In this document: positions 16,476 through 18,404 of the stretch, in pieces | Numbering within the stretch: the stretch's first letter is position 1 | How the letters are laid out: every line of letters starts with the position of its first letter | Assembly: GCA_963699255.1 (NCBI GenBank) | Contig: OY969425.1 | Span: forward strand, 360,001-392,000 | Source: an uncultured bacterium | GTDB lineage: Bacteria > Margulisbacteria > WOR-1 > CAVSGV01 | Direction: 5' to 3' | DNA length: 32,000 nt | The notes under the pieces: model-generated | The model's input: only the letters and a program-made list of their open reading frames with translations | Databases searched by the model: none | Told to the model about the DNA's origin: nothing | Translations under genes and position numbers: made by a program

Positions 16476-18404
16476 GTGTCAGAATTACTTTCCAGGTTAA
16501 ATCTTCCTTATGATTTAAAAAAACTTTCCTGTTCTGAGCTTGAGGACCTCGCGACCGAGATCAGGACTTTGATAATTGATACAACATCTCATGTTGGAGG
16601 GCATCTTTCTTCTTCCCTTGGAACGGTTGAGCTGGCTGTTGCGCTCCATGCGGTCTATGATTCGCCTAAAGACAAGATCCTTTGGGATGTCGGCCACCAG
16701 GCCTATGCGCACAAGATATTGACGAGCAGGAGCTCCAGCTTCCGGACACTTCGCCAATACGGGGGCATCTCTGGTTTCCCGAACAAAGATGAATCCCAGC
16801 ATGACCAATTCACCGTCGGACACGCGAGCAATTCAATATCTTTAGCGCTTGGACTGGCGAAGGCAAGGGATATTTTAAAGGAAAACTTCCACATAGTGTG
16901 CGTGATAGGCGACGGAGCGCTTTCCGGCGGACTCGCGCTCGAGGGGATGAACAATCTTATCGGATTAAAAGATAATCTTGTGATCGTTCTGAACGATAAC
17001 CAGCTTTCCATATCAAAAAATGTCGGAGGGCTCGCCAATTATTTTACAAAGCTCAGGACGAGCGGCGCTTATGTCAAATTCAGGGACCGCGTTGAGAAGA
17101 TGGTCAAGAGGATCCCAAGGATCGGGGTTGCGCTGGTACAGAAGGCAGAGAACATGAAGAACAGGCTGAAGCACTTTGTTGTTGACTTCAATGTCGGCGT
17201 GATCATAGAGGAACTGGGAATAAGATACCTCGGTCCGATAGACGGTCATAATATTCCCCTGATAATGGGGACCTTGCAATATGCGAAAGAAGTGAAGGGG
17301 CCGATAGTTGTTCACATTCATACAACAAAAGGAAAGGGATATAAACCGTCGGAAGCTGACCCGACCAGGTTCCATGGGATCGCGCCTTTTAAGATCGATA
17401 CAGGAGAGCTGATATCAAAGAGCGATGCCCCGACCTATACGTCCATTTTCGGAAAAACGATCGTTAAGCTGGCGCAGGCGGATGATAAGATCGTGGCAAT
17501 AACCGCTGCCATGCTTGACGGAACGGGTCTTGAAGAATTCGCGAGGCTCTATCCGGAGAAATTTTTTGATGTCGGCATTGCGGAAGAGCACGCCGTTACT
17601 TTTTCCGCCGGACTTGCGAAAGCGGGTTTAAAGCCGGTCGTGGCGATATATTCAACTTTTCTTCAGCGCGCTTATGATGAGATAGTTCATGACGTGTGCC
17701 TCCAGAACCTGCCGGTTGTTTTTGCCATAGACCGGGCGGGCATCGTCGGCGAAGATGGAGCGACGCATAACGGGATATTTGACATCGCTTTCTTGCGTCA
17801 TATCCCGAATATCGTATTTATGGCTCCGAAAGACGGCAATGAGCTTCAGAACATGCTTTATACGGCTCTGCGCCATGCCGGACCTGTTGCTATACGATAC
17901 CCCAGAGGAACGGCTATTGGTGTTTCCATGGATGACATGCTTAAAGAGCTGCCGATCGGCAAATCGGAAATTGTATACACATCTCATCTCCCACTTGCTC
18001 CGCGCGGACTTGTCCCGACCGCAGTGTCGGGAGTCGCGGGGGCTCCCATCTCTCATCTCGTAATTTTTGCTTTAGGTTCGATGGTTTATCCGGCGATTGA
18101 AGCCGCTAAGCTGGGTGAAGCAAAAGGAGTAAGCTCGACGGTCGTTAATGCGAGATTTGTGAAGCCGCTGGATGCTGAGCTCATAATACGGTTGGCAAAA
18201 GGATCGGACAAGGTCATCACTGTCGAAGAAGGGGTTTTGGATGGCGGTTTCGGCAGTGCGGTGGCGGAGTTGCTGGCCGATAAGGACATTGAGAAGCCAT
18301 TAAAGCGGATAGGGCTGCCATCAAAGTTCATTGAACACGGAACGAGGGCACAGATACTCGATCTATACGGCCTTACGGCAGAAAAAATAGCTTCCGTTTT
18401 TTGA
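16476..18404 (+). CDS. dxs: 1-deoxy-D-xylulose-5-phosphate synthase (carries a 23-aa in-frame insertion)
   Basis: It uses a GTG start. Dxs/TPP blocks are present (GGHLSSSLG, DVGHQAY.HK, IGDGALSGG, GIAEEHAVTFSAG, DRAG.VG.DG.TH.G). The insertion LPLAPRGLVPTAVSGVAGAPISH interrupts the conserved IGK….LVIFALGSM region. Confidence 0.95.
   Translation: MSELLSRLNLPYDLKKLSCSELEDLATEIRTLIIDTTSHVGGHLSSSLGTVELAVALHAVYDSPKDKILWDVGHQAYAHKILTSRSSSFRTLRQYGGISGFPNKDESQHDQFTVGHASNSISLALGLAKARDILKENFHIVCVIGDGALSGGLALEGMNNLIGLKDNLVIVLNDNQLSISKNVGGLANYFTKLRTSGAYVKFRDRVEKMVKRIPRIGVALVQKAENMKNRLKHFVVDFNVGVIIEELGIRYLGPIDGHNIPLIMGTLQYAKEVKGPIVVHIHTTKGKGYKPSEADPTRFHGIAPFKIDTGELISKSDAPTYTSIFGKTIVKLAQADDKIVAITAAMLDGTGLEEFARLYPEKFFDVGIAEEHAVTFSAGLAKAGLKPVVAIYSTFLQRAYDEIVHDVCLQNLPVVFAIDRAGIVGEDGATHNGIFDIAFLRHIPNIVFMAPKDGNELQNMLYTALRHAGPVAIRYPRGTAIGVSMDDMLKELPIGKSEIVYTSHLPLAPRGLVPTAVSGVAGAPISHLVIFALGSMVYPAIEAAKLGEAKGVSSTVVNARFVKPLDAELIIRLAKGSDKVITVEEGVLDGGFGSAVAELLADKDIEKPLKRIGLPSKFIEHGTRAQILDLYGLTAEKIASVF
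17982..18059. repeat. 60-bp GC-rich palindrome-rich segment flanked by perfect 9-bp direct repeats TCTCATCTC (17982-17990 and 18051-18059) inside dxs
   Basis: The direct repeats were read from the sequence and lie 69 nt (23 codons) apart. The interior contains the palindrome TCCGCGCGGA (17999-18008). It also contains the hairpin TCCCGAC-n6-GTCGGGA (18013-18032) and the pair GGGAG/CTCCC (18029-33 / 18043-47). Confidence 0.6.

Follow-up and report, generated by a model that had tools for sequence, protein, structure and literature searches.

Small dispersed repeats (SDRs) were reportedly described in 2008 by Elhai, Kato, Cousins, Lindblad and Costa in Nostoc punctiforme and other Nostocaceae (Genome Res 18:1484; cited as ref. 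43 in PMC3116915, and also in PMC5861425 and PMC4390886). The families SDR1–8 are said to measure 21–27 nt, to form hairpins with compensatory changes, and to be embedded in heptamer repeats as well as nested in themselves. To our knowledge, SDR-type elements are in print for Nostocaceae only, and we know of no report in which the mover of SDRs was found. Here we describe a hairpin element of 48 nt in the gene for 1-deoxy-D-xylulose-5-phosphate synthase (dxs) of an uncultured member of the Margulisbacteria. The gene lies in the window, the whole 32,000-nt stretch of DNA that was analysed, which corresponds to positions 360001–392000 of a genome consisting of one 1.77-Mb contig (G000, contig C1). 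We consider it highly probable that the element is a nested, SDR-like hairpin repeat seated inside an older in-frame heptamer block, in a surface turn of Dxs that is predicted to be disordered. SDRs appear to be its closest known kind, a likeness of anatomy and not of sequence.

Three further kinds of repeat invite comparison. The STRR sequences (short tandemly repeated repetitive sequences) of cyanobacteria are heptanucleotide tandem repeats. The Rickettsia palindromic elements (RPEs), reportedly described by Ogata et al. in 2000, are said to be ∼100–150 bp long, confined to Rickettsia and placed in frame in protein-coding genes. RPEs are mentioned in PMC1779305 and PMC10969869. Among heptanucleotide repeats, the TAACTGA repeats of Beggiatoaceae produce stops in the forward frames and are sited at protein edges (MacGregor 2015, PMC4679880); that paper also summarises the work of Mrazek et al. 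on long simple sequence repeats. The repetitive extragenic palindromic (REP) sequences and REPINs associated with RAYT (Y1) transposases are short GC-rich imperfect palindromes dispersed through the genome (Bertels and Rainey 2011, PMC3116915). For the SDRs, SDR5 has been reported to enter HIP1 at one exact point, after its third base and before its fourth (PMC4390886), and none of the HIP1-rich cyanobacteria other than Nostocaceae yielded an SDR-like repeat (PMC5861425).

The dxs open reading frame (ORF; 16476–18404, plus strand) is intact, with 642 codons, and its translated product aligns with E. coli Dxs (2o1s_A) across residues 11–635 with E = 2e-165 in a profile alignment. It is the single full-length dxs in the genome, the remaining matches being transketolase-like pieces that are 30–41% identical. 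A preliminary description of the window had noted a 9-mer, TCTCATCTC, at 17982–17990 and again at 18051–18059, with a GC-rich, self-complementary segment between the copies that keeps the dxs frame. All of this was confirmed. The start-to-start distance of the 9-mers is 69 nt, and the 60-nt intervening segment (17991–18050) is 71.7% GC, compared to 48.8% for the rest of dxs and 47.5% for the genome. The frame is uninterrupted across the segment (...IGKSEIVYTSH LPLAPRGLVPTAVSGVAGAPISH LVIFALGSM...). Both hairpin pairings are present: the inner one, TCCCGAC-n6-GTCGGGA, joins 18013–18019 to 18026–18032, and the outer one, CTCCGCG/CGCGGGG, joins 17998–18004 to 18035–18041. The predicted minimum-energy RNA fold is a nested hairpin that contains both pairings, at −27.7 kcal/mol. 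Relative to composition-matched shuffles, the z-score of this fold is only −1.35, because any equally GC-rich sequence folds well.

The segment had been read as an insertion of 69 nt, or 23 residues. Alignment of the orthologues upholds the insertion and corrects its size. The extra residues have no counterpart in any close Dxs orthologue, being missing from 20 relatives of the same class and from the 58 closest database Dxs proteins. The nearest Dxs proteins (76–82% identical over residues 380–642) have TSHLSSPISHL or a similar sequence at this position and are 16 residues shorter, so that the inserted piece is 48 nt. In the DNA of the relatives, the uninterrupted block consists of 4–5 CATCTCN units, coding TSHLSSPTSHL or TSHFSSPISHL. 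The Dxs loop of one genome of the same family (G002) has four such units, coding TSHLSSPTSHL, without a hairpin, and the dxs DNA of one of the nearest database relatives (L216) has five CATCTCN-type units without the GC-rich part. G002 itself carries two full dxs copies (C5:8242–10119 and C3:187015–188892), with the CATCTCN block in both. In another genome of the family (G001, C3:260471–262248), the only dxs-like matches contain several stops and may represent a decayed gene or poor assembly.

Because the hairpin-free relatives already hold both SHL-coding copies within the CATCTCN block, both 9-mers are heptamer-array units that are older than the GC-rich segment. The proposal that the 9-mers are a target-site duplication is therefore not sustained. 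Nor is their number striking: the 9-mer has two matches in the window versus 0.46 expected, and two or more were reached in 6 of 100 shuffles, making the pair by itself weak evidence. To the extent that the pair stands above chance, it does so because both copies belong to the heptamer repeat family, not because they flank an insert.

The true insertion occupies 17994–18041, is placed at a codon boundary and adds the 16 residues LAPRGLVPTAVSGVAG. It is built from a 24-nt hairpin unit, CTTGYCCCGACCGNAGYGTCGGGR, which follows the scheme CTTGY, 6-bp arm CCCGAC, loop CGNAGY, arm GTCGGG and R. In dxs, one unit is nested in the loop of a second. The limits of the outer unit were taken from an alignment of five 48-nt nested copies: its 5′ part lies at 17994–18008 (CTTGC, the arm TCCGCG and the loop half CGGA) and its 3′ part at 18033–18041 (the loop half GT, the arm CGCGGG and a final G). 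The inner unit, identified by pattern scans, lies in the outer loop at 18009–18032 and reads CTTGT-CCCGAC-CGCAGT-GTCGGG-A. To the left is the first part of the heptamer block (17980–17993), with CATCTC, ATCTCC and then the CA of the unit that is split by the insert; this part holds the left 9-mer. To the right, the block resumes at 18042–18060 with GCTCC, which completes CA|GCTC-C, followed by CATCTCT and CATCTCG, and holds the right 9-mer. All of these features are on the plus strand.

Excising 17994–18041 produces ...CCA GCT CCC ATC..., which codes TSHLPAPISHL and is equal in length to the clade motif TSHLSSPISHL. The same excision restores the heptamer unit CA|GCTC-C. Across the five nested copies (four from this genome and one from a metagenome), all 70 pair cells are standard pairs, and at two outer pairs there has been a compensatory change on both sides, as seen from the arms CCCGAC/GTCGGG, CCCGCA/TGCGGG and TCCGCG/CGCGGG. 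Of the six frames of the consensus unit, five are free of stops, and the remaining one contains a stop solely where the loop N is T.

The position of the insert in the protein was examined by the same profile alignment and by an AlphaFold2 model. In the alignment, the insert falls opposite a gap in E. coli Dxs, at the KRRGEK turn after IGKGIV. This turn is one that we take to open domain III of Dxs, at a distance from the thiamine diphosphate site, which lies between domains I and II. The model, built on 24 orthologues and with a mean pLDDT of 83.7, has strands at 498–502 and 527–532 around a coil at 503–526, where pLDDT falls below 50 at 512–520. Structural placement, which the preliminary description had called for, thus puts the insert in the low-confidence turn of a β-hairpin. 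The region is predicted to be disordered, and the 16 residues of the insert are most likely tolerated as an extension of a flexible surface loop.

The suspicion that the segment belongs to a dispersed repeat family proved correct, with further copies found by both BLAST and pattern scans of the genome. BLAST of the insert returned an 88%-identical 60-nt intergenic copy at C1:1515532–1515591, with CATCTCN heptamers along one flank but not the other, as well as copies at 1764150, 1559155, 98193 and 682058. A pattern scan found 16 CCCGAC-loop-GTCGGG hairpins in the genome, and the pattern TTGYCCCGACN6GTCGGG had 7 matches versus 0 for its reversed control. When nested outer units and variants are counted, the family comprises ∼9 loci, four of which have the 48-nt nested form. 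The second copy that had been proposed within the window, at 2764–2784, belongs to another hairpin family and is absent among the BLAST matches to the dxs insert.

Copies of the unit are found in either orientation, both within unrelated genes and in spacers. In the gene for DinB (IMS family), a nested 48-nt copy at C1:1764140–1764187 is in frame and codes 16 residues, CPDRTCPDRSVGSVGG, which are missing from seven orthologues, including those of two genomes at 75–76% identity. In the gene for LigA, a 24-nt copy at C1:682057–682080 is on the opposite strand and in frame, coding the 8 residues PDAAVGAS. This insert is missing from two other genomes (G002 and G005), and in a third (G003) the site is occupied by 8 inserted residues of diverged sequence. 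No target duplication accompanies the dinB or the ligA copy. A 24-nt unit at C1:418195–418250 sits inside CGTCTC/CATCTC heptamers in an unannotated ORF of 378 codons (417656–418792, minus strand) without a Pfam match, and is read in frame as KRDARPRHLGRGKREMRGAR. One further copy overlaps the last codons of prfB.

The dinB and ligA copies bear on the idea of a programmed translational bypass of the phage T4 gene 60 type, with take-off at the first CAT CTC of dxs and landing at the second. Identical codons on both sides of a structured 69-nt gap are what such a bypass would use, but the gap is in frame and open, no stop follows the take-off codon, the hairpin begins 13 nt past the first CTC and so is not at the take-off site, and no matched codons flank the in-frame dinB and ligA copies. 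We regard a bypass as barely conceivable.

Heptamers are a general feature of this genome. Tandem Repeats Finder (TRF) reported 433 arrays of period 7 versus 141 of period 8. There are ∼40 blocks of CATCTCN, nearly all of exactly four units (27 nt). A three-unit CATCTCN pattern matched 60 times in G000, 8 and 11 times in two relatives of the same family and not at all in two relatives of the class. One CATCTCN-free class relative has 34 AAATCCN matches and also AAATCCG units in its own dxs. Three copies of the hairpin unit are linked to heptamers: those in dxs, at C1:1515k and at C1:418k. At all three, the insertion is after the second base of a heptamer (CA^GCTC, CA^TCTC and CG^TCTC), and the heptamer register is restored after removing 24 or 48 nt.

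Searches for the unit in 145 other Margulisbacteria species genomes, in 5 cyanobacterial genomes, in 5 genomes of other phyla and in the 401 genomes of an Omnitrophota phylum sample gave no match. A stricter 22-nt form is present in 81 metagenome contigs of 34–68% GC. In these contigs, the unit often adjoins or sits within other small palindromes, and two of the loci (L158 and L199) have the same 48-nt nested form. About five of the contigs come from close relatives of G000 (77–88% protein identity), while most are distant (30–50%).

This distribution makes a local origin, in which slippage during replication or a template switch within the CATCTC repeat would have formed the palindrome on the spot, a very remote prospect. 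Heptamer arrays are prone to slippage and the length of the Dxs loop does vary within the class. However, the same 22–24-nt sequence lies at no fewer than seven other G000 loci and in the 81 metagenome contigs across their wide range of GC, and the GC-rich 48-mer cannot be derived from CATCTC units. An assembly or binning artefact, in which 48 nt were mis-joined into dxs at a repeat, is just as hard to credit. Repeats are typical sites of mis-assembly, but the 48 nt are placed at a codon boundary, keep the frame exactly and contain no stop, and the genome is a single 1.77-Mb contig. In addition, dinB and ligA each have an independent in-frame copy, and inserts of this kind are seen in related contigs from other samples.

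Two of the close relatives provide a clean comparison of a filled and an empty site. In L177 and L185, one gene contains a 24-nt unit at a point where its orthologue in G000 is exactly empty, with the flanks abutting at C1:1579662/1579663. The difference is exactly 24 nt, with no duplication. Presence and absence at orthologous sites are thus seen in both directions: dxs, dinB and ligA are filled in G000 and empty in relatives, and the L177/L185 site is the reverse. A separate observation concerns another close relative (L142, compared with C1:1217190–1217320), where a 24-nt unit lies upstream of a start codon and 14 nt of the ribosome-binding region are duplicated, with GGAGGAGGAGATAG to either side of the unit; no other copy seen has a flanking direct repeat.

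The preliminary description had taken the whole 69 nt as the footprint of a MITE (miniature inverted-repeat transposable element) or REP-type element with a duplicated 9-bp target, TCTCATCTC. Two perfect 9-mers do lie 69 nt apart around a GC-rich palindrome, and the element is dispersed. In contrast to what such a footprint predicts, the hairpin-free relatives have the equivalents of both 9-mers as heptamer units, the sister copy at C1:1515k is bordered by heptamers at just one end, there is no duplication in dinB, ligA or the L177/G000 pair, and the nearest orthologues differ by 48 nt and not by 69. The dxs unit, which lacks a target duplication, is also far smaller than a MITE, and it is not the hairpin family that flanks the genome's single Y1 transposase, as would be needed for the REP-type alternative. 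We therefore consider a footprint of this type very improbable. As a candidate, an insertion sequence (IS) or MITE footprint was rejected because no larger element ends in the dxs unit and the sole Y1 transposase has other hairpins at its flanks; spread of the dxs unit driven by a RAYT was rejected for the latter reason.

The dxs heptamer block has received other hairpins. In two other relatives (L214:1800–1900 and L215:1800–1900), whose Dxs proteins are 92% identical, a different palindromic module of 21 nt (CCTGCC...GGCAGGCAGG) is found at two different positions of the block, and a third relative, L216, is empty. Therefore, the dxs heptamer block is a landing site that has been used repeatedly. 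Elsewhere in the class, the Dxs loop differs in length and is made up of other heptamers: four perfect AAATCCG units in L008, with variants in L011, L014, L002 and L007; GAAATTN units in L015; and CCCTNAC units with a small hairpin in L020. In the last case (the dxs loop of G026), the CCCTNAC heptamers are followed by the hairpin CCCCTCTCCC-AAA-GGGAGAGGGG, giving the same heptamer-plus-hairpin build in an unrelated sequence.

Set beside the SDRs, the dxs unit has a similar size (24 nt, compared to 21–27 nt), is dispersed over ∼9 loci, has a compensated hairpin and shows presence or absence at orthologous sites. Copies of its family likewise lie inside heptamers, are nested in themselves and are inserted precisely, without target duplication and without a known transposase. 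In contrast to the SDRs, the unit has another sequence, absent from the five cyanobacterial genomes searched, and its host belongs to the Margulisbacteria; copies are in frame in essential genes, and contigs that differ widely in GC content share the identical unit. The CATCTCN blocks resemble the known heptanucleotide repeats in being short tandem 7-nt arrays that are dispersed (∼40 blocks) and lineage-specific, but differ in that they are fixed at four units (27 nt) and that several are translated in frame.

The RPEs, which had been offered as a precedent, hold in one respect and fail in another. As with RPEs, the dxs unit is a palindromic and presumably selfish repeat that lies in frame in genes, here an essential gene and also dinB and ligA, and is tolerated in surface regions. 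Its size and taxon do not agree, the unit being 24 nt (48 nt when nested), inside a heptamer array and in the phylum Margulisiibacteriota. With the REP/REPIN sequences, the dxs unit shares the character of a short, GC-rich, dispersed palindrome, and a system of the REP/REPIN type is represented in the same genome by GGAACC...GGTTCC hairpins. The dxs unit, however, does not flank a transposase, is rarer (∼9 versus at least 38 loci) and has four copies inside genes.

A selected function of the insert in dxs, whether an mRNA hairpin that regulates dxs by ribosome pausing or RNase III processing or a new property given by the 16 residues, would fit the stable nested hairpin (−27.7 kcal/mol) within an essential mRNA and the arm pairing kept between copies through compensatory changes. 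Against this, the insert is missing from every other Dxs examined, the nearest being 82% identical over residues 380–642, and the same unit is found in unrelated genes and spacers in both orientations. The fold is also no better than that of shuffles of the same composition (z = −1.35), and the region is predicted to be disordered. We thus consider a selected function unlikely. The insert is most likely a tolerated passenger.

Under the preferred reading, a nested SDR-like repeat within a heptamer block, the tolerant loop of Dxs would carry two layers of passenger DNA. The older layer, common to the closest relatives, would be the in-frame CATCTCN block, which makes the β-hairpin turn that opens domain III longer. 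The second layer, seen in G000 alone, would be the 48-nt nested element, placed at a codon boundary in one heptamer (CA^GCTC). The unit may spread by being copied into sites that it does not duplicate, among which heptamer arrays and earlier copies of the unit are frequent. It could persist within genes through a length that is a multiple of three, five stop-free frames, and landing or survival only in surface loops. In dxs, it would be translated as 16 disordered residues (LAPRGLVPTAVSGVAG), probably with little effect on the enzyme.

A bolder proposal is that CTTGYCCCGACCGNAGYGTCGGGR is an active, ultra-small mobile element, near-identical across distant lineages (contigs of 34–68% GC) and moved by conserved machinery. 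We put this forward tentatively, as a possibility that falls well short of being probable. If it is true, the multiple-of-three sizes (21, 24 and 48 nt) and stop-free frames would allow such units to seed new loops in essential enzymes, and the dxs loop of Margulisbacteria would be a natural landing pad, with three independent hairpin insertions in one heptamer block.

Several results weigh against our interpretation and should be set beside it. The statistics are thin because the family is small (∼9 loci), and the covariation sample is five sequences only. At ten insertion sites, the only shared feature was a purine at −1 (9 of the 10 sites), with no clear target motif. The Y1 gene is flanked by GGAACC...GGTTCC hairpins and not by CCCGAC units, and no mobilising gene was found for the dxs unit. 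ORF clustering on 80 metagenome loci likewise found no recurrent recombinase or transposase family beside the unit; the sole ORF family common to two distinct organisms on these loci was an AbiEii toxin.

The locus nevertheless offers several handles for a search for the mobiliser: a closed 1.77-Mb genome, ∼9 copies, clean filled and empty sites, a reused dxs block and an identical unit in unrelated contigs. The same handles make it easier to test how well proteins tolerate such inserts. The tempting reading of an insertion-sequence footprint is replaced here by two stacked, very small repeat classes that would make new protein sequence in an essential enzyme. For annotation, the consequence is that short GC-rich in-frame segments in Margulisbacteria genes should be suspected of being repeat passengers, not conserved domains.

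The GGAACC...GGTTCC hairpins form a separate family. The genome's only Y1 HUH transposase (C1:1290815–1291165), which these hairpins flank, scored 81.6 bits on an IS200 model and 50.4 bits on a RAYT model, the latter under the model cut-off of 80. The hairpins (GGAACC/GGAGCC...GGTTCC/GGCTCC) have a 5-bp inner arm and a loop, and are present in at least 38 copies, often as doublets. Together with the Y1 gene, this family looks like a REPIN-type system. The sequence at 2764–2784 forms the 3′ arm of one such hairpin, of the GGAGCC type (GATCCTGCGAC TGAA ... T GTCGCGGCTCC), the whole copy of which spans 2686–2784. The loop of this hairpin holds a separate GC-rich insert of ∼64 nt, and a second unit of the family lies at 2838–2865.

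An Rfam scan of 17700–18300 gave nothing relevant, its only match being RAGATH-25 at E = 4.2. No strand bias of the dxs unit relative to replication was seen, with three plus and four minus orientations in one replichore. Cumulative GC skew has its minimum (origin) near 1.43 Mb and its maximum (terminus) near 0.50 Mb; therefore, the contig start is not the origin and the two replichores are unequal, at ∼0.84 and ∼0.93 Mb.

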